From an uncultured archaeon (lineage in GTDB: Archaea > Asgardarchaeota > Thorarchaeia > Thorarchaeales > Thorarchaeaceae): a DNA stretch of 57,775 nt. Location: NCBI GenBank assembly GCA_964558645.1, contig CAZLEV010000018.1:1-57775 (forward strand), in the 5' to 3' direction. The notes beneath the pieces were generated by a model. That model worked only from the letters and a program-made list of their open reading frames with translations. It was not told the origin of the DNA and did not search any database. Numbering within the stretch: the stretch's first letter is position 1; every line of letters begins with the position of its first letter. Positions 29,322 through 56,484 of this stretch are shown here, piece after piece. Position numbers and translations under genes: made by a program.

Positions 29322-31916
29322 TTGGAAGACGCGCGTGATATAGATCTCTCAACCCCGAGCACAGCTGAGGCGATAAGCCTTGCATCAGCATCTGTTTTAG
29401 GTTCAACCACCCGACGCGGTCACCCATTGGGGACTGCAGTCGGTTCAGGGTCGATGATGGAATCCAACTCTGAAGAGGTGGCACTCAATGTGATGCCTAT
29501 TGTGTTCTCGGCAAGGGATAGTCTGTTGCAGGCTGAGGATCTTGAGTTGCTTGCTGCTGAGTGGTATCTAGAGGGATCTGCTGGTTCGGAATTGCTTCCT
29601 GAGGAGCTTGTTATCGCTGGCAGCAATTTTGGCGGCATCAGTACTCATGTATGTGTCCTATCTTGGGAGAAAGGAGTTGTTGACCCCTTCAAGATTGACT
29701 CACATATGGCGAATCTCTCGAAGAAAATCGGAGATATTGAACAGGCAATCGAAGCCAATGAACTTGACTATGAGACTGACGGGCTTCTGGTGCTTAGGAG
29801 ATTCTCTGACCGATTCAACAGAGTCCTCTTCGTGGACATGATGGACAGGAGGTTCAAGGGTTCGTGGGATTCGATTCAGATTAAGCACGAAGGGTCTGAA
29901 GCATATTTCCGTGTTCGGTTTAGATTCTCTGAGGACTTCACTTCGATGCCTCCGAGTATACGTGTACTGGAGCGCCAAAACATCGAGTTCTTGGCGTCTG
30001 GCATTCCTTGGAACCGGGACGCCGGTTCTCTTTCTCGTATGATCTCGACTCCTCTGGGCATTGACACAGTCACAAGGCGCTTACCTGAACTAGGTCGTTC
30101 TATTCTCCGAGAGATGAATGCGTATGCTTACAGCACAGAGGAACTGGATATCGCTCGCTCTCTGGTAGATTCTCTCATCATCCGACTGGGCAAGGAGAAG
30201 GTCATGTACTCTGAGTTTGATGACGTCTTGGAAGCTGCTAAGGATATGATAGAAGACACAAGTGTTATCCTCTCTTCAGTCACCAAGTCTCTCGAGGAAC
30301 ACATCAGGTCTGGCAAGACATTGACAGTTCCTCAACACATTGACTCGGTAAGAGAGGCTCTGGATGAGTTGTCAGAGGGTGTTGGAGATGGCGAGGTGAT
30401 TAAGAGCTTGCTTGAGCAGCTCGAAAGATCACTACTCAGAACTTTCCCCAAGGAGAACGAAGTGAGAGCCTGGCAGATGCGGAGTTCCATCAGGTATTTC
30501 CTTACCTATTGTCGGAGAGTCAAGAGCTATTTCATTACGGAGTTGAAACGATACTTGGTTGTAGGGGCGGTGACAGAAGCCTTCATGTCAGCTCTTGAGG
30601 GATTCAGGGATGACTTAGGGGTCGAGGATTATGACAACATAGACTCCCTGCTCTTCACCAAGTTTTTTGTCGAACTGGTTTCGCAGCTCCGGGCAATATT
30701 TGATAGAGAGGCATTCGAATCGGGCAAGACCAGTGAATATTCGGAACTCGCAGAGTTTCTCGGGCACAGGCTTATGGATGCATTCGAGCAGATTGAGATC
30801 TGGAATCTCGTGTCCTTTGGCGACTTGGCTGAGATTGTACGGACACAGATTGTTTCTGAGTACTCAGACTCGGGTTCAGAAGACACACTAAACGATGAGG
30901 GTAAACGACTGATTCAACGTCTGGATGCCCTTGAACTGGTTATCTCTGAAACATTACCTGATTTTGTTGAGCATGTTTCCTCAACTCCATTCATGTCTGA
31001 GTTCTTGATGAGAGGCTTGGACGGCGATAGACTTGGCAAGGATAGGCTGATAGAGATTCTTAGAGGCTCAGAGAGCAAGTCTGATGAATGGATTCAAGAA
31101 TCTGCAGGATGGGTAGATGCGTTCGATCCAGATACTCCATACAGCTCCGCTACCGAGCTACTCGCAGACTTCCTAACCTTTGTGCATGAGAGGTATGGAG
31201 CTGGTATATCCGCCGCCTCCATGGTGGAACGAGTAGCTGCTGAGGAGAAAGCGCTTGAAGAGGACTTCCAAGAACAGCTACAGTTGTGGCAAGATGAATG
31301 CGGCAGGGTCGAAACTGAGAATGCTCCCATTGTCGAGAGGAACAGGAAGAGGCTGGAACTAATTGCTGAAGCTCGGTCCGACTTTGAAAACGAACAGGCC
31401 GAGTACCAAGAGGCACTTGCGGAGTATGAAAAACAAAGAAGATTGGATTCCGATGGTGTGCTTGATAGCCCAAAGCAGCCAGTTGCTCCCGAGCCTCTTG
31501 ATCTCAGAATAGCCAGAATAGAGGGCGAGTATCCCGAAGGAATTCCTAAGCCAATTCCAGAGAAGCCTCTACCATCTGAAACTCTCATCGCCCACAGGCG
31601 GCTCCGTGCGCTGCTTAGTGATAGATTGGAGCGGATGGACGAACGACTCCAGGCTATGAGTACCGTCTTCTCGAAACGGCTAGAGCAGTTGAAATCCGAA
31701 GGAACGCATCGAGTAGAAACCACCAAGCTGAGCATCTCTGATGGATTTCTAGATCATCTTTTGGATTCGATGATTCGTTCTTTGGGAAAACTCATGCCGC
31801 GTATTCAGCGAGTCCTGCTTCGTGACCCCGATACCCCCTCGCGGGTACATGTGGTTTCATACGACTACGTGGACGACGAATTCATCGTCACTGTTGGATA
31901 CAAGGAGGTCGCCTGA
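29322..31916 (+). CDS. Large acidic hypothetical protein (864 aa) with coiled-coil and Pro-rich insert
   Basis: Long ORF with a TTG start after GGAGGT. Its 3' end carries the SD (AAGGAGGT) for the next gene. Confidence 0.8.
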   Translation: MEDARDIDLSTPSTAEAISLASASVLGSTTRRGHPLGTAVGSGSMMESNSEEVALNVMPIVFSARDSLLQAEDLELLAAEWYLEGSAGSELLPEELVIAGSNFGGISTHVCVLSWEKGVVDPFKIDSHMANLSKKIGDIEQAIEANELDYETDGLLVLRRFSDRFNRVLFVDMMDRRFKGSWDSIQIKHEGSEAYFRVRFRFSEDFTSMPPSIRVLERQNIEFLASGIPWNRDAGSLSRMISTPLGIDTVTRRLPELGRSILREMNAYAYSTEELDIARSLVDSLIIRLGKEKVMYSEFDDVLEAAKDMIEDTSVILSSVTKSLEEHIRSGKTLTVPQHIDSVREALDELSEGVGDGEVIKSLLEQLERSLLRTFPKENEVRAWQMRSSIRYFLTYCRRVKSYFITELKRYLVVGAVTEAFMSALEGFRDDLGVEDYDNIDSLLFTKFFVELVSQLRAIFDREAFESGKTSEYSELAEFLGHRLMDAFEQIEIWNLVSFGDLAEIVRTQIVSEYSDSGSEDTLNDEGKRLIQRLDALELVISETLPDFVEHVSSTPFMSEFLMRGLDGDRLGKDRLIEILRGSESKSDEWIQESAGWVDAFDPDTPYSSATELLADFLTFVHERYGAGISAASMVERVAAEEKALEEDFQEQLQLWQDECGRVETENAPIVERNRKRLELIAEARSDFENEQAEYQEALAEYEKQRRLDSDGVLDSPKQPVAPEPLDLRIARIEGEYPEGIPKPIPEKPLPSETLIAHRRLRALLSDRLERMDERLQAMSTVFSKRLEQLKSEGTHRVETTKLSISDGFLDHLLDSMIRSLGKLMPRIQRVLLRDPDTPSRVHVVSYDYVDDEFIVTVGYKEVA

Positions 31917-31919
31917 TAC

Positions 31920-34361
31920 ATGTCTAGCACTTGGATATTGAAGACTAAGCAGATGAGCGAGGCGGGTAAGGAGATTATTCTCACTGAGGCTCTAGCAACT
32001 CACATGCGTAGTAACAGGGACAGAGAGCTTCTTTCCAGCATACTCAAGGAGAACAGACCCTTGGAGGACATAATGTCGTTTTTCGCAGCCTTCTATCTCT
32101 ACAACTATCAGGGTCTTCGACTACTCAGCATGAGTGATGACGAACAACTGACTATTGAGAAGAAGAATGAACTCTCACACGATGAGCGTCGCTATCTTGA
32201 GATGGAGATTCGTGAGATACTGGAGAATAGGCTGAGAGAAGAGATTGACATCGAGCGACTGATTTCGGAGTTTGTGTTGGAGCTCGTTGATATACCGGGA
32301 GTGCAGGCACAAAATGACGAAACAGCTTCTAAGGTGATCGGTCTCGTTGAAGGCTATCTTGAGAAGATTCCACGCGACTATTCCCCCAATAGCGCCCTTG
32401 ATTTCATCCTTGGCATCACCGGTTGGCGAAAGCGGTGGCTGGATGAGCTTTATGCAAAGGCCTCGGGACTGCAGGAATCCTCGCTCTCTCTCAGGGATGA
32501 GTTGCTCAGAGAACATGAGGCTGAAGTCGTAGAAACCTCTGTTGTTAGGAGACTGCTATCACTCATTTCCGGGAAAGAATCTTATTTGTGCAGCCCTCTG
32601 ACTGCGGCTAACATTCCTCATGACACACTTGTCGAGATTGCTCAGGCGTCAGTTGACTTTATAGTTCCTCGGTCCAGTTTTCTTGATCCTGTCCGCTTGG
32701 CTCATGGCTCGCGGATTGAGGTACTTGACTGGCTTGTTGAGGAAGTCGATTCTCTTACTAACCTCAGTGAACTTGAAGGGGGGATGGCTGACAGAATAAC
32801 TGATGAGATTACTGCCAGTCTTCCAGATAATCCGCAGTATGCCTTTCCCTTTATCAGTCACCTCGTGTCTGTAGACGAAGAGACGGTACGAAGCGGACTG
32901 GCCTCTAAGCGCTTGATGGATCCTAGCACCCTGCTTGAAGGCCTCAGCTCATTTTCAAGTGATTCTGCTGTAGAAGAAGCATCAAGTCAGTACAGCCCGC
33001 AGGAGCTCGAGGACATAGAGCGTTCGCTAAGAACTCTAGAGAAGCTGGAACACACACTGGAAAAACCTGTCAAAGGAATGCTTAGAGCACGAGGCCTCAG
33101 AGCGGACGAGCTTGACAAAGTTGGTATCGCTGTCTTGGGAAAGAATCCATCAGAACTTATCGCCATCGAGTCACAAGTATTGGATGAACTAAGAAAGAAG
33201 ATGAGGGTGCCCTCTCGTGAAGACTTCCTCGAGATGCTGAAGGCCCGAGAACTCGTTGAGCGTGGTGACCTAAAACAGATGGGCATCTCTTCCTCCACCG
33301 ACATGACAATACAGAGACAACATGAGGAAGCGATAGCAGCTCTACGGATGGACCTAGTCTGGCATTTCATGATAGGGGTTCTGAAGAACCTCGCAAGGGT
33401 CGTCGAGACCTATCTGCGGTCGAAGCAAGATCTATTGCGGAGCAAGGCGCTACTCCTGAGCATTTATCAGGATGCCGCCACAGAACTCCAATTCCTGCGG
33501 GAGGAGATTCTCATTGACTTATTGTCGGAACGCATTCTCGAAATGAAACAGGTTCATCCACATCTTGATGGGATGATGATACGTTCTTGGATGCATGCCC
33601 GGTTATCAAATCAGTACATGTCGGCTGCTAGAGAGGAGCTGGAGAAGACGCCGAGCCCGGTCTTTGAGGGAGTGACAGACGAACCTCTGCAGGCTAGTAC
33701 ATTATTGTTCGACAATTATGCCATATCGTTTGACTTGATGCAACGATTCCTAAGACGCGAGCGCAGGAAGAAACTCGCCAAGGAACAGCTTGCACTTGAG
33801 GCAAAACGAGAGGAGAAGCGCCTTCTTGAGAAGAAGAAGAGAGAGATTGATGTTCTCTCGTTCATCTATACCAAGGCACACACAGTATTCAGAGCAACCG
33901 GCAGAGTTGGCACCGCAGGTCTGGAGTGGGATGAGAACGATTCAGCAAAATGCTCGAATATGCTCTCTTTCTTCGTACGGACAAACAGAGGCCGCCCAGT
34001 ATGCCAAGTCTGTGGAAGTACGCCTAAGAATGGGAAGTGTGAAACACACGGCAAAGGGCAGATGAAGGCCAGCGATGACATCGACAATCTGTCGGTCTTT
34101 GTGATGAGGGCTCTCTCAGATATAAAGTCCGGGCTGATTGGGCCTACCGCCGAACCAGTATCATGGAGCGAAGCAAGGTCAATCGTTCAGAGACAGATAG
34201 GCCGTCTGAAGCGGAAGGGTAAGATCACCTCAAAGATGGATCTCAAACAGCTAATGCCTGGAGAGATAAACCAGATCATTGGTCCTGCGATAACTGGCGT
34301 CATTGCGGATTACTTCAATGACTCATTGGGGTATGCCGCCCGGAGCGCTGGAATAGCTTGA
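31920..34361 (+). CDS. Large helical hypothetical protein (813 aa) with C-terminal CxxC-x8-CxxH Zn finger
   Basis: Long ORF starting 3 nt after the previous stop; CQVCGSTPKNGKCETH. Confidence 0.8.
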   Translation: MSSTWILKTKQMSEAGKEIILTEALATHMRSNRDRELLSSILKENRPLEDIMSFFAAFYLYNYQGLRLLSMSDDEQLTIEKKNELSHDERRYLEMEIREILENRLREEIDIERLISEFVLELVDIPGVQAQNDETASKVIGLVEGYLEKIPRDYSPNSALDFILGITGWRKRWLDELYAKASGLQESSLSLRDELLREHEAEVVETSVVRRLLSLISGKESYLCSPLTAANIPHDTLVEIAQASVDFIVPRSSFLDPVRLAHGSRIEVLDWLVEEVDSLTNLSELEGGMADRITDEITASLPDNPQYAFPFISHLVSVDEETVRSGLASKRLMDPSTLLEGLSSFSSDSAVEEASSQYSPQELEDIERSLRTLEKLEHTLEKPVKGMLRARGLRADELDKVGIAVLGKNPSELIAIESQVLDELRKKMRVPSREDFLEMLKARELVERGDLKQMGISSSTDMTIQRQHEEAIAALRMDLVWHFMIGVLKNLARVVETYLRSKQDLLRSKALLLSIYQDAATELQFLREEILIDLLSERILEMKQVHPHLDGMMIRSWMHARLSNQYMSAAREELEKTPSPVFEGVTDEPLQASTLLFDNYAISFDLMQRFLRRERRKKLAKEQLALEAKREEKRLLEKKKREIDVLSFIYTKAHTVFRATGRVGTAGLEWDENDSAKCSNMLSFFVRTNRGRPVCQVCGSTPKNGKCETHGKGQMKASDDIDNLSVFVMRALSDIKSGLIGPTAEPVSWSEARSIVQRQIGRLKRKGKITSKMDLKQLMPGEINQIIGPAITGVIADYFNDSLGYAARSAGIA

Positions 34362-34763: not shown

Positions 34764-36164
34764 ATGGTTTCAAAGTTCGAGCCCAAAGGAGTCATGCCTG
34801 CTCTGGTTACGCCCTTCACAAGAGATGGAGACATCTTGGAAGACGGGTTCAGAGAGGTAATCGACTACACAATTGAGAAAGGTGCCACCGGGGTTGTCCC
34901 GGCTGGAACCACCGGTGAGTTCGTATACATGCGGACAGAGGAGCGTAAGAAGCTTCTGAGGCTCGCTGTAGAGTATGTAGATGGTCGAGTTCCAGTCATT
35001 GCTGGCACTGGGCAGAACAGCACGAGGGCAACAATAGCGCTCACTCAATATGCCGCCGATGTTGGCTGTGATGCTGCTCTTGTTGTATCTCCGTTCTATC
35101 TCAGGCCTTCTGACAAGGGCTACTATGAACACTACTCCAACCTTGCCCGGAAGGGGAATCTACCCCTGATTCTCTACAACATTCCTCAATGTACTCTGGG
35201 GGAACTCAGCTCAGATCTAGTGTACGATCTGGCTGCTCTAGATAGCATTGCGGGGATCAAAGATAGCAGCGGCAATATTGGTAAGACGGTCGAACTCATC
35301 CAGAAGCTCGAGGGGAAAATTCCCGTATTGATTGGCCACGATGAATGTTTTCTGTCTGCAGTGGCTGCAGGTGCCAGCGCAGCAATACTGGCATCTGCCA
35401 ATGTCATTCCTCATATCTGGCTGGATATCATGAAGAAGGTCAATGATGGTAAGATGAAAGAGGCAATGAAGCTTCAGCATTCTGTTCAGACATTTGCCCG
35501 ACTGGTTACCAGAAATGGCGGTGCCCCTCCAGCAAAGGCCGCACTGAAGATGATGGGGATAAACGCCGGCAAGTCGCGATTACCTCTTAATACCGGTGGA
35601 ACGCTCACAGTTGAGTTGAAGGACGAGATTCGCATGGAGCTTGAGAAGTTGGGGCTCATCTCTTCACACGGCCAACAACCCCTGACTGATAATTTAGACG
35701 TGGTTTCGCTCTTCAGTGAGTTCAACATTTCCCCGGATCTTCTCGACGGTGCAAGATTCGGACAGGCCTCGAATGAGCAGGTCAGTGTATCTATCGCCGC
35801 GGGGCCAAAGAGAGGTGGCCTGGGTCGCATCTTTGTGAAACTGCTTACTCAGGCAAAGATTGGACATGAAGCGCTCTCGGTTATTCTTGAACCAAATCTC
35901 TTTGTCAAGCCGAGTAGCATCATGGTTCCGACCCGTACCATAAGGTCGATGCGCCAGGCTTCTCTTTTCTATGGTCCCGTTCAGTCCGGTGCAGCCAAAG
36001 CAGTATCGGCATACCTCGATGCGGCGAAGATACCAGCTGAAGCATTGGACGGCAGTGTGATGATAATGGCAATGGATGTTGACTTGAACAGCAGAGATCG
36101 AAGAGCTGTGACAGATGCTGCAGAAGATGCGGTTGGAAGAGCATTGGCTGAGGTGTGGAGGTGA
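34764..36164 (+). CDS. DapA/NAL-family class I aldolase fused to a degenerate formaldehyde-activating enzyme (Fae) domain, copy 1
   Basis: PALVTPF, GTTGE, LYNIPQ, GIKDSS. The C-terminal GHEALSVILEPNLFVKPSSIMVP...FYGPVQSGAAKAV is the Fae core. Confidence 0.85.
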   Translation: MVSKFEPKGVMPALVTPFTRDGDILEDGFREVIDYTIEKGATGVVPAGTTGEFVYMRTEERKKLLRLAVEYVDGRVPVIAGTGQNSTRATIALTQYAADVGCDAALVVSPFYLRPSDKGYYEHYSNLARKGNLPLILYNIPQCTLGELSSDLVYDLAALDSIAGIKDSSGNIGKTVELIQKLEGKIPVLIGHDECFLSAVAAGASAAILASANVIPHIWLDIMKKVNDGKMKEAMKLQHSVQTFARLVTRNGGAPPAKAALKMMGINAGKSRLPLNTGGTLTVELKDEIRMELEKLGLISSHGQQPLTDNLDVVSLFSEFNISPDLLDGARFGQASNEQVSVSIAAGPKRGGLGRIFVKLLTQAKIGHEALSVILEPNLFVKPSSIMVPTRTIRSMRQASLFYGPVQSGAAKAVSAYLDAAKIPAEALDGSVMIMAMDVDLNSRDRRAVTDAAEDAVGRALAEVWR

Positions 36165-36169
36165 CCAAG

Positions 36170-37645
36170 GTGAGCGGCGATTTCCATTTCAAGGGTGCTT
36201 ACCCTGCACTGGTCACACCTTTTGATGAGGACGGCGTCAATGAAGAGCAGTATCGAGGTCTCATTGACTACGTCATAAGAGCCGGTGCAACAGGAATTGT
36301 CCCCTGCGGCACCACTGGGGAGTTCACCAGTATGCGCTTCGAGGAGAAGATGGAGGCCATCCGCATAGCATGTGATGCATCGAAGGGCCGTGTTCCTGTT
36401 TTGGCTGGAACAGGTGCAGCCTACACAAATGATGCCATCAAGCTCACTCGTCGTGCTGCAGAATTCGGTGCTGATGCAGCTCTGGTTGTGACCCCGTATT
36501 TTCTGAGACCTTCTAATCGTGAGATATACGAGCACTTTGAGAAGATTGCCAACAACAGTGACATTCCTCTGTTTCTGTACAATATTCCTCAAGTAACGGG
36601 GGTTCCCCTTCACTGGACCCTTGTCGACGGTCTTCGGGAAATCGATGGGGTAGTCGGGATGAAGGACTCGAGTGGAGATCTTGTTAATCTCACAACCATC
36701 CTCGTCAGAAGACCTGAGGATTTCCAGGTTGTTATTGGTCATGATGAGGTTGCTTTGCCTGCATTAGCTGCAGGATGTGATGGAGCAATCCTGGCGAGTG
36801 CTAACGTGTTCCCTGACAGATACATCAAGATGCAGGCTGCACTTGCGGAGGGCGACCTCAAAGGTGCTATGATTATCCAACGGAGCATACAGAAGACCGT
36901 GCGGGTGCTTGTGAACAGAGGTGGGGGTCTCGCAGTGAAAGCAGCTCTCAATATGATGGGCGTTCCTGTCGGCAAAGCTCGGCTTCCCCTTATGGAAGGC
37001 GACTCTCTCTCTTACGAGGACATAGATGAGCTTCGCACATGCCTTGAAGATATGCAGCTGATCGAGCGCGGACCGGTACGATTCGTCATGGGTGAGCGTA
37101 GTCTTGTTGCGGAGTCCTATCCAAAGGCGGTGGGCCTGGTGCCGGATGAGGTGTCTGATCTGACACTGCTCCATGGTGAGGCCTTGGCTGGCAGTGGTCT
37201 GGAGGTTGCTCATGTGGACTTGGTCATGGGAATGAAGAACGGACCTCTCGAAGTGGCAATTGACAACGCAGGAACTGTTGTGGAGGGTTTCCATCCATCG
37301 AATATAATCAAAGGTCTTGAACCCACAACCATATTCGCTCCGACAGTGACCATCACCAACGAGCGACATAGGAGTCTTGTCTATGAGAGCGCCCAGAGGG
37401 GTGTTGCTGATGCCGTCACAAGGACAATCACCGACTGTATCATTCCTGAAGAGCTAGTGCAGGATATTGCAATTGCTGTGAATGTCTTTGTCCATACAAA
37501 GGCCATCAATCCACGACGCGTACACATCAACAACTTCCGTGCAGTAAGGTTCGCATTGCGCAGAGCCATTGAGGGGAGGCAGAGTGTAGAGGAGATCGCT
37601 GCAAGGCGTGATTCGGCCCGCCATCCGTTTGCCTACAATCCCTAA
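36170..37645 (+). CDS. DapA/NAL-family class I aldolase fused to a Fae domain, copy 2
   Basis: PALVTPF, GTTGE, LYNIPQ, GMKDSS. C-terminal GEALAGSGLEVAHVDLVMG..GP, AQRGVADAV, VNVFVH, NFRA..A.RRA, HPF. GTG 36170 follows GGAGGTGA. Confidence 0.88.
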   Translation: MSGDFHFKGAYPALVTPFDEDGVNEEQYRGLIDYVIRAGATGIVPCGTTGEFTSMRFEEKMEAIRIACDASKGRVPVLAGTGAAYTNDAIKLTRRAAEFGADAALVVTPYFLRPSNREIYEHFEKIANNSDIPLFLYNIPQVTGVPLHWTLVDGLREIDGVVGMKDSSGDLVNLTTILVRRPEDFQVVIGHDEVALPALAAGCDGAILASANVFPDRYIKMQAALAEGDLKGAMIIQRSIQKTVRVLVNRGGGLAVKAALNMMGVPVGKARLPLMEGDSLSYEDIDELRTCLEDMQLIERGPVRFVMGERSLVAESYPKAVGLVPDEVSDLTLLHGEALAGSGLEVAHVDLVMGMKNGPLEVAIDNAGTVVEGFHPSNIIKGLEPTTIFAPTVTITNERHRSLVYESAQRGVADAVTRTITDCIIPEELVQDIAIAVNVFVHTKAINPRRVHINNFRAVRFALRRAIEGRQSVEEIAARRDSARHPFAYNP

Positions 37646-41137: not shown

Positions 41138-42143
41138 GGCTCTGTGTGAAAAGTCGAGGAGAGTAATACAAGGATATGTGATCAGACCGGCTGGTTCGCA
41201 TGATTCAATTCTTACTCTTCATCGTATGACACAGCTAGGTCTCGTCATCCTCAGTTCTTGCTTCATGAGCTTATGAAGAGTAGTACTATGGTTCCCGCCC
41301 GCTTCCATACCCTCGGGAAACCTCCGGACGTGACCCTCCCTGCTCTCTTTGTCCTTCTGGGCCTCAAGTTCGATGCTGGCCTCATCCACACGAGCTTCGC
41401 GGCCCAGCTCTCCTCAAACCCTCAGCTCCTTGAACTTCTCGGTCTTGAGAGGGCGCCAAGTTATTCCTTCCTCCAACAGGCACTCAGGCGCCTTGACACC
41501 CAGCCCCTTCACAGGATGTATCAGCTGCTCACTCGGAGGAAACCTCCTTCCAGCCACCTGACTGTGGACGCCACCGGGTTCTCTCACACCACTGCGTGCG
41601 AGTGACTGCCCGTGCGCTTCAGAAAGACGCGGGGACGGCATTTCACGGCACTCCACATAGTTGTGGACACCGACTCCCTCATGACCATTGCTGTCCGGGT
41701 GCGACCTCGGCCCGGTGGTGATACAAGAGACCTAGCAGCCCTGATGGGACGAGTCGATGCATCACAGCTTGAGGCCGTCTATGGTGACAAGGCGTACATC
41801 ACATCTCCCGGGAGAATGTCCAGTGCATAACTGACCGTGGGGCCTATCCCGCGATAGAGCCCGAGAAGAAACTGCCAGCACAGTCCCGGGCATACCGTGG
41901 TTACAGGGAGCCGATTCTAGAGTACAGCCGAGATCCTGTGGAGTGGAAACGGTTCCGCGAGTATGGACAGAGGAGTCTTGTGGAGACCGTGTTCAGCATG
42001 ATGAAGGTGAGATTCACCGGAGGTCTGAGGTCGAGGGGGGTTCAAGGAGCAGAGAAGAGAGCTGCTGATTAAGGCGGTGCTTCACAACCATGGATATCCA
42101 AACTTCTTAGAGTGTGGCGGGAGGTGCCTTTTCACACAGAAGC
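41138..42143 (+). mobile_element. IS5-family insertion sequence (~1.0 kb), inactivated
   Basis: Left end GGC-TCTGTGTGAAAAG (41138-41153) and right end CTTTTCACACAGA-AGC (42128-42143) share a perfect 13-bp inverted core. Flanking 3-bp direct repeat TCC at 41135-41137 and 42144-42146. Confidence 0.85.
41258..42120 (+). pseudogene. IS5-family DDE transposase pseudogene
   Basis: Fragments PSYSFL, TVDATGFS, LHIVVDTD, YGDKAY and YGQRSLVETVFSMMK, separated by an in-frame TGA (41603-41605) and frameshifts. Confidence 0.85.
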
Positions 42144-48330: not shown

Positions 48331-49185
48331 ATGCCAATAAGGAAGTACTTTGCAGAGAGAGCAGGGAAACCCCGACAGCTCGATATAGATTTGGATACTC
48401 TGAGAGAAGCTTTCTGTCACACAGTTAGATCCTTCATGGAGCGTTACTACTTCCAAGAGGCTACAGGCTATGAATGTGTTGATGCTGGGAGAACTCTAGG
48501 CACATGGGGTGACAACCCAAGAATCTATATCATGAGCGAAACCGGGTTGGATGACGTTTGGCCGATCAAAGACCACGCATCTGACTTCGATAAGCTTGAT
48601 CTTTTCACCATGATTGAGTTTCTACATGACCACGTTTCGAAGCCTGAAAAGGGGTTTAACCACAAATGGAACAATTGCGGGTGGCACTACTCTACTTTCA
48701 ATCGTGAGGAGGGACAGAAGGAATTCAGTAACGCGATGAATCAATTCCTACCTTTCTTCCAGAAAGGATACGAGTTGCGTCATAACGGCGAAATCTGGCG
48801 CAAGATATCCGAGGGCCTACAACCCTTGCTCGATTCGACGCCGAAGACTAACAATCCTGAAGCCATCGATCATCGCGTTGAGGATGCCAAATCCAAGTTT
48901 CTCAGGCACAACGCCTGTCTGACTGACAAGAAAGATGCTGTGAGGACACTCGGGGACGTTCTAGAACGAATAAGACCACAGATAACGGCCTTTGGGGCTA
49001 TGTCAAAGAGCGACGAGAGCGATCTCTTCAAGATTATCAACGGATTCGACATCAGACATCACAACCGGGACCAACAGGGGGAGTACAATAGAGAAATCTT
49101 CTACGACTGGATGTTCTACACTTTCCTGAGCTCAATCGACCTGATTCTAAGATATGCTGAAGAAACCAACCAGAGTGTAGTATGA
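48331..49185 (+). CDS. AbiJ N-terminal-like / HEPN-like putative anti-virus protein
   Basis: N-terminal RKYFAERAG, DLFTMIEFLHD, GYEL..NGEI; C-terminal DAVRTLGDVLE..R and NGFDIRHHN. Confidence 0.6.
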   Translation: MPIRKYFAERAGKPRQLDIDLDTLREAFCHTVRSFMERYYFQEATGYECVDAGRTLGTWGDNPRIYIMSETGLDDVWPIKDHASDFDKLDLFTMIEFLHDHVSKPEKGFNHKWNNCGWHYSTFNREEGQKEFSNAMNQFLPFFQKGYELRHNGEIWRKISEGLQPLLDSTPKTNNPEAIDHRVEDAKSKFLRHNACLTDKKDAVRTLGDVLERIRPQITAFGAMSKSDESDLFKIINGFDIRHHNRDQQGEYNREIFYDWMFYTFLSSIDLILRYAEETNQSVV

Positions 49186-52694: not shown

Positions 52695-53501
52695 TTGAAG
52701 CTGGAAGAATCGACTCCAGAACCGAAGAGCTGGGTCTACGGATGTCTTGAGTCAGGCGGATGGCGTATTCATACACTGGAGGGATACTCCATAGATGACT
52801 CTGGAACTACGGCATGTTTCGAGAGAAGAAAGAGTGACTGCCCTCCGCTGGAAATCGACGAAGACGAGCTAACGGATTGGTTCTACAAGCACGAAGACTT
52901 GGACAAATGGCAGGCCAGAACTCTGCTTGCTAAGCAACTTGGTGTTGACCTCGTACTTGTCATCTGGGACGATAGTTTGGAGGAGATCAACACCTTCACT
53001 GTCAATGTCGGGGCTGACAGATGGGTCCAGGTAGATTCTCTCATCTCCTTTGCATCATGTGCTGAATTCGCTGACTGGCTCGCGGAACTCAAAGGAATCA
53101 CTGTGACCAAACCCTTCGCTACTGGAGGTAGGTTGGCAGATATCGATGAATGGCTGCGAGAGTATGGGGTGCCGTGGCCTGGAAATCTGGACGGCTTTCT
53201 GGTTTCTCGACGCAGAGAGGTGCTCGCGCTATTCGAATTCAGTAGGACACGAAAGATGCCCGTTCGATACCATGATGTAAACAAGTACTTCCGCAAGGAC
53301 ATCAACCGCTGGAAACCGCTCGATATCCTGAAGAAGGAGCTTGACGTGTTTCTTTACATCATACTCTGGTCCAGTAGCGAGGATATCGTGAAACTACAGA
53401 AGTTATCACGCATCACAAACGGATTACACTATGAATGGCAGGAACTACTCAATTCTCAGGGGCTAATATCAGCCTTCAACAGAGAATTTGGGAATCCTTA
53501 A
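52695..53501 (+). CDS. Restriction-endonuclease-like protein with two tandem PD-(D/E)XK-type repeats
   Basis: LEGY..CFERRK..DLDKW..LAKQLGVDLVLVIW versus LDGF..LFEFSR..DINRW..LKKELDVFLYIILW. Confidence 0.6.
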   Translation: MKLEESTPEPKSWVYGCLESGGWRIHTLEGYSIDDSGTTACFERRKSDCPPLEIDEDELTDWFYKHEDLDKWQARTLLAKQLGVDLVLVIWDDSLEEINTFTVNVGADRWVQVDSLISFASCAEFADWLAELKGITVTKPFATGGRLADIDEWLREYGVPWPGNLDGFLVSRRREVLALFEFSRTRKMPVRYHDVNKYFRKDINRWKPLDILKKELDVFLYIILWSSSEDIVKLQKLSRITNGLHYEWQELLNSQGLISAFNREFGNP

Positions 53502-53550
53502 ATCGTTCTGGATTGGACTATGGTTTCAACCATCCCGAGGGGGTACAAGT

Positions 53551-56484
53551 ATGCCAAAAGAAGCAGATATCCACTTCGAGTTGTATCGGCATCTCCAGAA
53601 TGCTGTTGAGAAGAAGGCTAAGTATCACGGCTTGGAGTATGGCAAGGTCATCCCCGAGAAAGAGGTGGACTCCGGAAGAGCGGACATCGTCATCGAAGAT
53701 GCACGTGGTCGAGCAGTGCTCGTTATTGAGGCCAAGAGAGAAGTCAGGGAGAGATATCATAGAGATCTGGACCCTTATTCGCCCCATGTCATTGGGCAGG
53801 CGTTCAACTATGCAGGACGACTGGGAGCAGAATACTTCGCCACGTACAACGGAGGATACCTAGTCCTCTTTCGAACGTTCGAGGAGGGTGTTCCACTCCT
53901 CAAACGGAAGAGTCGTGCATATCGTGTTCGCAACACCAAGGTGTTTGCGGGTGAACTGCTTGAGCAGTTGGCAGCCATAGAGAAGGGTCGGCTGGGTTGG
54001 GAACCTGACCCACAAGCGTTTGTCAACAGACTTCGGGTTTTCCACCAACGGCTGGCAGATGAGCTTCTGTCGCAACTTGATAGCCTCGGTGACGAATTCT
54101 TCCAGACGTTCAATGAGTGGACTGCGAAGCAGGGATGGGATGGTGATAGCCAAGAGCAAAGATCGAGGTTCGCACGACAGGCCGCATACCTACTCATGAA
54201 CAAGCTTCTCTTCTACAAGGTGTTAGAGGACACAGGGCATGATGTACCCACGATTGACTCTGAAGCCCTTGTAGACCCGGAGAAACGGCGTGAGAGCTTC
54301 AAGAGGATTACTGACAGAGTGGACTTTGAGGCAATCTATGCTCACGATCCCCTGTTCGACCGGATCCCCCTCTCAGAGAGAGCCACACTGGAAACGCAGG
54401 AGTTCTTGGAAGAACTGGAACGCTATGACCTGGACAGATTTCAATACGACACCATCGGCCATATCTATGAAGACATAATCCCTATCAAGGAGAGGCATGA
54501 CCTCGGGCAATACTATACACCGCCAGAGGTTGTGGAACTAATCACTCGAATGACAATCCTCGACCCCGATGCGCTAGTGCTTGACCCTGCATGTGGCAGC
54601 GGCTCGTTTCTGGTAAGAGCCTACAACAGGCTCCGCGAGCTCAAGCACCAACCTGGGCGAGAATACGGACACAAGGAGACCATCTCACAGCTCTTTGGAA
54701 TCGACATCAACCGTTTTCCTGCACACCTCTCTGCCATCAACCTGGCATTACAGAATCTGAAGGAACAGACAAAGGACGTGAACATCATAGTGGCCGACTT
54801 CTTTGACATTGCTCATGGCCAAGACCGTCTGTTCACTGAGACTGTCAGTCTGAGTAAGCCCGTTGACAGCCCCCTTTATGTGAGTGTGCAACCAACGAGA
54901 TCATACGTCGATGCAGTAGTTGCAAACCCGCCTTATATTCGTCAAGAGAAGATCGATGACAAGGAGAAATGCCGGAACCATCTTGTAGAGCTTGGATATG
55001 CTGACATGAGCGAGAGGTCAGATATCTACGTGTATTTCTTCACCCACTCCACTCAGTTCCTGAAAGAGGGTGGCAGGATGGGCTATATCACATCGGAGAA
55101 ATGGCTCACCGCCGGGTACGGCAGCGACCTACAGAAGTTCTTCCTCGACAACTACAAGATACTTGCCATCGTCAGCTTCAGCAGACGTGTCTTCACGGAT
55201 CCGCTTGTTCCCACCTGTGTTACTATTCTCGAGAAATCCAATTCCAGCGAAGAACGGAATAGCCACGTTGCAACCTTCCTTAGAGTGAGAAAGCCAATTG
55301 ATATCGATGAGCTCATCGAGATACTGAACACAAGTAGACCACCCGGCACAATCGAAGAGCAAGAGAGCTATCGGCTCATTGCGCTCACACAGAGCGAACT
55401 AGCCACTGCCAGCAAGTGGAACCGGTTTCTCACCGCACCGACCCTCTACTGGGACCTGTTAGGGCATGAGAGAATATGTGCGATGAAAGATGTGGCCGAG
55501 GTCACTCGCGGCATCACGACGGGGGCCAACGACTTCTTCTACCTGAAGGTCGATGAACTGGGCTCTTGGCCCATTACCGAGCAGTTTGTAAGCCCTCTGG
55601 TGAAGTCCATCAAACAGGCAGACAGACTTGAGTTCCGCCACTCAGACACCGACTTTGTAATCCTCGACCTCAGCGACTACGTTGAGCAGGTTCTCTCCGA
55701 AGCAAAGGATGAGATCCAGACCGACATTCATCTCCAGAATCTGCCAAGCGTGGCTCTGCCAGACGAACTCACACCGGAGGAGATCTATGTCTTGGACCGC
55801 ATGTATCAAGATGGTCACAAGGGACTATACCGATACATCATCACTTCCATGTGGGAAAAGGACTGGGAACGAGGGGGGCCTCCTCAGAGGAGGGCAACCT
55901 GCCTCCAGTATCGTAGTCGCAACAAGTGCTGGTTCAATCTTGGTGACTTGAAGAAACCTGAGCTCTTTGCGGCCAAAGGATACTGGGACGATATGCTGGT
56001 ACCACTGAATCGTGATAGACTGGTGATTGATTGTCGACTCTATCAGATTCACAGTGAGTATGGACTCGTGTTGGCTGGCATATTGAACTCAAGTCTCACC
56101 CGGTTCTTCCGAGAGATACATGCTCGAATAACGGGAGGAGGAATGAGCGAGATGATGGTCTACGAGATGGAACGGATGCCTATTCTCAATCCTAGGACTC
56201 TCTCGGAAACAGAGGCAGAACGGATTGCAGAGTCTATATCGGACATAATCAAGGATGGTGAAACGAGAAGCACAGATTTGGACAAGGCCGTCCTTGCCCC
56301 TCTCGGACTGGAGGAGCGTGTGTCTGAGTTCAACGACCTTGTCAATGGAATATCAGAGGCACGAAGACAGGGGAAGGATGTTTCACTCATGCTCGATGGC
56401 GTTGAAGGTGCTGAACGGGTCACTACCTTGAGAGGTGCAGATGTGATAGATAGATCGAATCAGACTAGGCTGACTGACTTCTAG
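53551..56484 (+). CDS. Type IIG-like restriction-modification fusion (HSDR_N-type nuclease + gamma-class N6-adenine MTase + TRD)
   Basis: RADIVI..LVIEAK..QAFNYA..ATYNG; GQYYTP; motif I VLDPACGSGSFL; motif IV VANPPYIRQE; RGITTGANDFF; GILNSS. ATG 53551 after GAGGGGG. Confidence 0.92.
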   Translation: MPKEADIHFELYRHLQNAVEKKAKYHGLEYGKVIPEKEVDSGRADIVIEDARGRAVLVIEAKREVRERYHRDLDPYSPHVIGQAFNYAGRLGAEYFATYNGGYLVLFRTFEEGVPLLKRKSRAYRVRNTKVFAGELLEQLAAIEKGRLGWEPDPQAFVNRLRVFHQRLADELLSQLDSLGDEFFQTFNEWTAKQGWDGDSQEQRSRFARQAAYLLMNKLLFYKVLEDTGHDVPTIDSEALVDPEKRRESFKRITDRVDFEAIYAHDPLFDRIPLSERATLETQEFLEELERYDLDRFQYDTIGHIYEDIIPIKERHDLGQYYTPPEVVELITRMTILDPDALVLDPACGSGSFLVRAYNRLRELKHQPGREYGHKETISQLFGIDINRFPAHLSAINLALQNLKEQTKDVNIIVADFFDIAHGQDRLFTETVSLSKPVDSPLYVSVQPTRSYVDAVVANPPYIRQEKIDDKEKCRNHLVELGYADMSERSDIYVYFFTHSTQFLKEGGRMGYITSEKWLTAGYGSDLQKFFLDNYKILAIVSFSRRVFTDPLVPTCVTILEKSNSSEERNSHVATFLRVRKPIDIDELIEILNTSRPPGTIEEQESYRLIALTQSELATASKWNRFLTAPTLYWDLLGHERICAMKDVAEVTRGITTGANDFFYLKVDELGSWPITEQFVSPLVKSIKQADRLEFRHSDTDFVILDLSDYVEQVLSEAKDEIQTDIHLQNLPSVALPDELTPEEIYVLDRMYQDGHKGLYRYIITSMWEKDWERGGPPQRRATCLQYRSRNKCWFNLGDLKKPELFAAKGYWDDMLVPLNRDRLVIDCRLYQIHSEYGLVLAGILNSSLTRFFREIHARITGGGMSEMMVYEMERMPILNPRTLSETEAERIAESISDIIKDGETRSTDLDKAVLAPLGLEERVSEFNDLVNGISEARRQGKDVSLMLDGVEGAERVTTLRGADVIDRSNQTRLTDF

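Follow-up and report, generated by a model that had tools for sequence, protein, structure and literature searches.

Which reaction is served by two adjacent genes that each join an aldolase barrel to part of a Fae domain? The question is raised by genes A and B (Table 1), found in a Thorarchaeaceae genome on a contig stretch of 57,775 nucleotides, hereafter called the window. A first, sequence-only reading had described them as two DapA-type barrel-Fae fusion genes lying 5 nt apart, and had proposed that they form a heteromer handling formaldehyde in connection with the H4MPT pathway. We followed up this proposal by profile searches, homologue alignments, genome surveys and structure prediction.

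Two adjacent genes encode aldolase-Fae fusions

Profile searches confirmed the architecture. PF00701 matched both proteins (E about 3e-74 each), and PF08714 matched A (E 2e-23, profile positions 9-135) as well as B (E 1.5e-30, profile positions 2-158); the Fae parts of both also align with M. extorquens Fae (1Y5Y). A and B share 40% identity, their homologues in sequence searches carry Thorarchaeota names, and they hold the only Fae domains of the genome. The GTG at 36170 is likely the start of B, since the GGAGGTGA site lies upstream and the resulting length matches that of homologues. The overlap of this site with the stop codon of A suggests that translation of the two genes is coupled.

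Table 1. Positions of the genes and features discussed in the text.
Feature	Position	Strand	Description
Gene A	34764..36164	+	466 aa; class I aldolase barrel (about residues 1-300) and Fae half-domain
Gene B	36170..37645 (likely start)	+	491 aa; class I aldolase barrel and Fae half-domain
Fae domain of A (Gln88 face)	35769..36152	+	Domain search
Fae domain of B (His22 face)	37175..37630	+	Domain search
Ribosome-binding-like site GGAGGTGA	36158..36165	+	Overlaps the stop codon of A; 4 nt 5' of the GTG of B
X	G000 C15:27266-28540 (L123:9267-10541)	-	U32-like TIM barrel, 425 aa, no cysteine cluster

Promoter and terminator scans gave signals at chance level, and the Pfam search yielded no functional clue from cutA and the two large genes adjoining the pair. 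Two adjacent large genes (864 and 813 aa), convergent with cutA and without a Pfam match, occupy positions 29322-34361 of the window. The region 3' of the pair (37700-57775) has a low coding density and is likely a defence or mobile island; it contains a transposase-like fragment (41258-41605) and a weak AbiJ N-terminal match (48331-49185), and an Eco57I-type restriction-modification gene lies at 53488-56484.

The GTTGE motif, the catalytic Tyr and the Schiff-base Lys noticed at first sight are indeed common to both barrels (T49, T50, Y138, K166 and S168 in A; T48, T49, Y137, K165 and S167 in B), so that equivalents of Thr44, Tyr133 and Lys161 of dihydrodipicolinate synthase (DHDPS) are present. 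The catalytic Lys is kept in all 117 A homologues and in 104 of 107 B homologues, and at the Tyr107 position A has Tyr where B has Phe; A may therefore be the main aldolase of the pair. The Ser two residues after the Lys, found in both barrels, corresponds to Ser198 of HOG aldolase, which binds the 4-hydroxyl of the substrate (PMC3188589). This Ser is found in some true DHDPS too.

A and B are almost certainly not dihydrodipicolinate synthases

Database names make A and B ordinary DHDPS, and both exceed the TIGR00674 dapA cut-off of 206 (with 224 and 241) and are the only PF00701 proteins of the genome, but there is hardly any chance that the names are right: the Arg138 that binds aspartate semialdehyde in DHDPS (PMC3188589) is replaced by Cys in A, by Val in B and by Cys, Val or Leu in all 224 Thorarchaeia homologues, the genome (93% complete) showed no DapB above cut-off, no Asd and no homoserine dehydrogenase (Hom), and Lokiarchaeia with the fusion retain a DapA-like gene in addition, which in two genomes neighbours asd. 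The absence of the Arg, from which the sequence-only reading had argued against DHDPS, thus extends to every homologue. A and B also score under the cut-offs of the NanA, KdgD, HpaI and archaeal KDG aldolase models. In hundreds of Asgard and Bathyarchaeia genomes, relatives of A and B wrongly bear the name dapA, and a capacity for making lysine is thereby falsely implied.

Fae site residues are divided between the two chains

No single chain holds a complete Fae site, the residues being divided between A and B. The Fae half of A keeps Leu371, the ILEPNL loop (Pro377-Asn378) and YGPxQ407 (Gly404-Pro405-Gln407), and is without the His/Asp strand and the C-terminal tail. That of B keeps GEAL (Glu337), His348, Asp350, Thr394, VFVH and the HPF tail, and is without the PNL loop. 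This complementary loss had been read from the two copies alone, copy 1 without the His and the tail and copy 2 with a degenerate PNL segment, and it holds throughout the Thorarchaeia homologues. His22 of Fae is present in 106/107 B versus 0/117 A; the HPF tail, too, is found in every B (107/107) and in no A (0/117). Conversely, every A (117/117) has the Pro of PNL, which is deleted from every B (107/107), while Gly-Pro-x-Gln88 is kept in 114-117 of 117 A and its Gly is missing from 103/107 B. The Lys in the VKP motif of A corresponds to Fae Lys63, not Lys71. At the Lys71 position, B and the intact fusions of Bathyarchaeia have Thr.

Decay is specific to the face. Compared with the consensus of intact fusions, the His-face columns match at 0.58 in B and 0.15 in A, and the Gln-face columns at 0.50 in A and 0.19 in B. 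The unused faces have decayed alike in Thorarchaeia and in other pairs (0.15-0.20 match versus 0.49-0.67 for the retained faces). In the Fae structure, the active site lies between subunits, with His22 as acid.

A predicted complex of the two Fae domains scored 0.88 and the best control 0.00; the mark used for this score was attained by 58 of 80 solved complexes and by 2 of 110 mismatched pairs. At least 85% of the contacts agree between runs, with a partner pLDDT of at least 87. Residues 348, 350, 392-394 and 483-487 of B are placed against 369-382 and 403-408 of A, so that the retained halves of A and B meet in the modelled interface. The score may stem from likeness to the solved Fae pentamer, and which faces touch in the model appears more telling than the score. 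Together, the face-specific decay and the model support the earlier idea that a heteromer rebuilds Fae sites, and A and B very probably form one. The pair would then illustrate clearly how the active site of a homo-oligomer can be divided between paralogues.

A five-membered ring has no way of closing when each chain offers a single Fae face; an assembly with one site per A-B pair, probably an A2B2 tetramer, is therefore likely. An unusual assembly had been expected from the mismatch between tetrameric DapA and pentameric Fae symmetries. The mismatch probably resolves into this single site per pair, a Fae ring being unlikely. Neither Fae domain exceeds the TIGR03126 cut-off of 118.05 (75.6 and 117.6 for A and B), and Lys71 is replaced; cofactor binding may therefore differ from that of Fae.

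The fusion forms one clade and occurs with the H4MPT pathway

We surveyed the conservation of the pair and its co-occurrence with H4MPT genes. A Fae match was found in 79 of 87 Thorarchaeia genomes and at least two matches in 72 of 87, the related genomes in these counts being kin and not independent samples. When a single contig carries both, the short domain (A) comes first and the long one (B) follows about 1.4 kb downstream. The A-B order is also found in pairs from Anaerolineae, Thermoproteota and unnamed contigs. One such pair (L215:8544-11449) has lost the catalytic Lys from both barrels and kept the Fae halves, with a RibD_C gene directly upstream. Bathyarchaeia (80 loci) carry a single fusion with all motifs of both halves intact, and single fusions with both halves intact were likewise found in several Asgard families, including Lokiarchaeia.

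In the barrel tree, all fusions form one clade (support 100/99), within which the A types group at 92/80 (with one B-type barrel among them), the B types at 97/94 and the singles at 91/95. The node bearing on the single fusion as the ancestral form has 83/79 support. One old duplication followed by transfer would be the simplest account of this tree. In the Asgard sample, the fusion occurs solely where Mch is present, and mch, mtd and ftr are all found in the genome studied here, in agreement with the proposed link to H4MPT.

A conserved barrel protein, X, accompanies the fusion

The gene context of the fusion elsewhere pointed to a partner, X (425-430 aa across relatives). Of 80 Bathyarchaeia loci, 68 have X next to the fusion, the other neighbours there being housekeeping genes only. 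In four X-A-B operons and in loci of the Lokiarchaeia type, X lies directly 5' of the fusion. In Thorarchaeia, X and the A-B pair are not neighbours; in this genome X lies on another contig (68% identity), and it is likewise present in 70 of 76 family members. X proteins share 60-78% identity across Asgard archaea and Bathyarchaeia and 55% with a Polaromonas protein, and the family comprises at least 8000 clusters. X had no match in Pfam, NCBIfam or PDB sequences, an Atlas feature search gave no clue, and X was not found on viral contigs. Its predicted fold is a TIM barrel (pLDDT 87.8), which retrieved generic TIM barrels only (Z up to 12.5, U32 Mk0906 among the ties). In two X-less Asgard families the fusion is preceded by Y, a distant paralogue of X that is U32-like by Atlas features.

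X also occurs with other modules. Metagenome X loci have a PanB-family neighbour in 39 of 80 cases, Lrp in 9 and a Hom module in 4. The PanB-family neighbours exceed the panB cut-off and are often accompanied by Lrp and an aminotransferase, with no recurring panC, panD or panE cluster at these loci. They have bulkier residues at E. coli PanB positions 179, 212 and 214, which presumably belong to the pocket; these X-linked paralogues may act on pyruvate/HOB (4-hydroxy-2-oxobutanoate). In the Asgard families f5 and f22, X heads an operon with an aminotransferase, Hom and aldehyde:ferredoxin oxidoreductase (AOR); gene counts there were 0/23 for Mch, 0/49 for Fae and 1/23 for Asd, with one weak DapA-like match.

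Several further loci deserve mention. Lrp, panB-like and X genes, sometimes with an aminotransferase, occur without panC and with altered pocket residues at L252, L253, L284-L286, L294 and L299. The X-aminotransferase-Hom-AOR operon was seen at L189-L196, L226, L288, L290 and L292, in genomes with no Asd; it is a candidate homoserine-oxidising route to aspartate. X lies within an acetyl-CoA synthase accessory cluster (CooC-like, AcsE) at L272 and L283, followed by an Ldh_2-family dehydrogenase that could possibly serve a HOB/2,4-dihydroxybutyrate step. One locus has the order activator, X, amino-acid dehydrogenase, PanB, MttB-family methyltransferase, and in two Mch-less Asgards a lone DapA-like gene lies 5' of X. 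A Y-like gene is found 5' of a 4-hydroxy-2-oxovalerate aldolase pair on a Mycobacterium plasmid, and a Y-like U32 gene with an aminotransferase and two iron-containing redox enzymes on an Enterobacter plasmid (L211:10910-19873), resembling a small-molecule biosynthetic cluster.

Two roles of X were considered and rejected. As a replacement for methionine gamma-lyase it showed no clear pattern, PF01053 enzymes co-occurring with X in many genomes; as a replacement, with the fusion, for homocysteine synthesis it is at odds with the co-occurrence of PF01837 with both.

A proposed H4MPT-dependent cleavage of 4-hydroxy-2-oxobutanoate

The three modules found beside X (aldolase-Fae, PanB-like and aminotransferase-Hom-AOR) share one plausible intermediate, HOB. 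In the PanB reaction, which is aldol chemistry involving formaldehyde, a methylene unit is exchanged between folate and a 2-oxo acid, and PanB tolerates several such acids as substrates (PMC7611260). By analogy, aldolase and Fae would perform a PanB-like transfer with H4MPT. The aminotransferase, Hom and AOR together would convert homoserine's keto acid into aspartate. As HOB is the compound that fits all three module types, it is rather likely to be the substrate; the gene context of X thereby lends independent support to what had been offered only as an example. That A and B couple formaldehyde with a 2-oxo acid, whichever it is, we hold with good confidence. On balance, we favour the view that they are two obligate subunits of an H4MPT-dependent HOB hydroxymethyltransferase, with the net reaction HOB + H4MPT <-> pyruvate + methylene-H4MPT.

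In such an enzyme, the barrel would bind a 4-hydroxy-2-oxo acid, most likely HOB, as a Schiff base with its Lys and split it into pyruvate and formaldehyde. The formaldehyde would be channelled to a composite Fae site, with His348/Asp350 and the tail from B and Leu371, the PNL loop and Gln407 from A, and condensed there with H4MPT. Formation of methylene-H4MPT would pull the aldol cleavage and feed the Mtd/Mch/Ftr branch. HOB would probably be supplied by X from an amino-acid-derived 2-oxo acid. X could remove a leaving group from C4 of this acid, with methionine as the obvious source, a role we regard as possible but short of probable; hydrolysis of a methionine-derived thioether by X is uphill on its own.

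The opposite direction would make methylene-H4MPT and pyruvate into HOB and then the homoserine skeleton (or, with a thiol and X, the methionine or homocysteine keto acid), replacing aspartate kinase, Asd and Hom. Fusion-bearing families are mostly without Hom (3/76, 0/11, 0/19 and 0/3), several fusion-less H4MPT families have it, and across families the two almost exclude each other. Reversibility is to be expected, as for PanB, and thioether formation from an alcohol, which is thermodynamically favourable, also counts for synthesis. Against this, thrB and metE were found in 0 of 12 Thorarchaeia tested, Lokiarchaeia with X and the fusion retain Asd and the homocysteine-forming PF01837 enzyme, and Hom without Asd, beside AOR, in f5 and f22 reads as homoserine oxidation. 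Because of these observations and of the Lrp and ACT-domain regulators, the direction, if HOB is the substrate, is probably catabolic and an anabolic role appears unlikely. The sequence-only reading had left both C1 entry and C1 exit open; exit by HOB breakdown is now the more likely and entry the less.

The substrate might instead be another hydroxymethyl 2-oxo acid (ketopantoate or 3-methyl-HOB), and the pair an H4MPT counterpart of PanB that makes or degrades pantoate. That the commonest neighbour of X scores as PanB speaks for this possibility, yet we consider it improbable: the X-linked PanB loci are without a recurring pan cluster, their presumed pocket residues are bulkier, and the Hom module indicates an unbranched C4 acid. 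The genome also has its own panB, and a role of A-B as stand-in for a missing PanB in CoA synthesis was rejected on that ground.

Just as improbable is that the two domains are uncoupled, the barrel being a broad 2-keto-3-deoxy-sugar-acid or HOG aldolase and the Fae domain having only a scavenging role for formaldehyde, or one in structure or regulation. In favour of this are the promiscuity of DapA-family aldolases, the loss of Lys71 and the L215 pair, which retains its Fae halves without a catalytic Lys in either barrel. However, the fusion is a single well-supported clade and, in the Asgard sample, confined to Mch-positive members, and PanB-like enzymes, with the same coupled chemistry on folate, replace it beside X.

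Returning to HOB cleavage by A and B, it is possible, though less likely than not, that the pair is the last step of a widespread and so far undescribed anaerobic amino-acid pathway, for example from methionine via 2-keto-4-methylthiobutyrate to HOB and methanethiol (by X) and on to pyruvate and methylene-H4MPT. HOB would be the natural hub of at least three unrelated modules (aldolase-Fae/H4MPT, PanB-like/folate and aminotransferase-Hom-AOR), and, in Asgard archaea and Bathyarchaeia, peptide fermentation would be joined to the methyl branch of the Wood-Ljungdahl pathway. If A and B do act on HOB as proposed, HOB is a natural metabolite, and Thorarchaeia and Bathyarchaeia have a direct route from organic carbon to the H4MPT branch, whose role is debated. 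There would also be an aldolase dedicated to pyruvate and formaldehyde and coupled to a C1 carrier; for this activity, synthetic methylotrophy currently depends on promiscuous enzymes. The proposed reaction would also make X, a very conserved family without a name, testable.

Comparison with known systems

A literature search, with most subscription papers outside its scope, found no paper on a DapA-Fae fusion. The pair is made of known parts and probably catalyses a natural reaction that has no earlier report.

The closest relative of the C-terminal halves is Fae of M. extorquens (PDB 1Y5Y/1Y60; PF08714, TIGR03126; EC 4.2.1.147). His22, Asp24, Thr73, the Leu52/53 region and Gln88 are all present in A and B together. 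Fae, however, is a free homopentamer, whereas A and B have one face per chain, a replaced Lys71 and a fused aldolase. Fae-Hps of archaea (NF009833) similarly joins Fae to a formaldehyde-releasing or formaldehyde-fixing barrel enzyme; in A and B, Fae is C-terminal, the barrel is a Schiff-base pyruvate aldolase and not a hexulose-phosphate synthase, and there are two paralogues. Against the NF009833 model, A and B reached 65 and 92 bits versus 274, with the Fae part alone aligned, and Lokiarchaeia carry both types of fusion. Within the DapA/NAL family (DHDPS, 4-hydroxy-2-oxoglutarate aldolase and KDG aldolase; PF00701), the barrel Thr-Thr, Tyr133 and Lys161 are shared, as is the Ser of HOG aldolase; A and B differ by the missing Arg138 and the added Fae domain.

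The likeness to PanB (PF02548; EC 2.1.2.11) is functional only and proposed: a pterin-bound methylene would be exchanged with C3 of a 2-oxo acid via formaldehyde, and PanB-like genes occupy the place of the fusion beside X. PF02548 matched neither A nor B, and PanB is unrelated in sequence, depends on a metal and uses tetrahydrofolate and 2-oxoisovalerate. Finally, the synthetic homoserine cycle uses the HOB aldolase activity of E. coli RhmA and a HOB aminotransferase, with promiscuous enzymes and free formaldehyde, and HOB is called a non-native metabolite there (PMC8879981). The reaction proposed for A-B and the link between HOB and homoserine are common to both, but A-B would be a dedicated natural enzyme tied to H4MPT.
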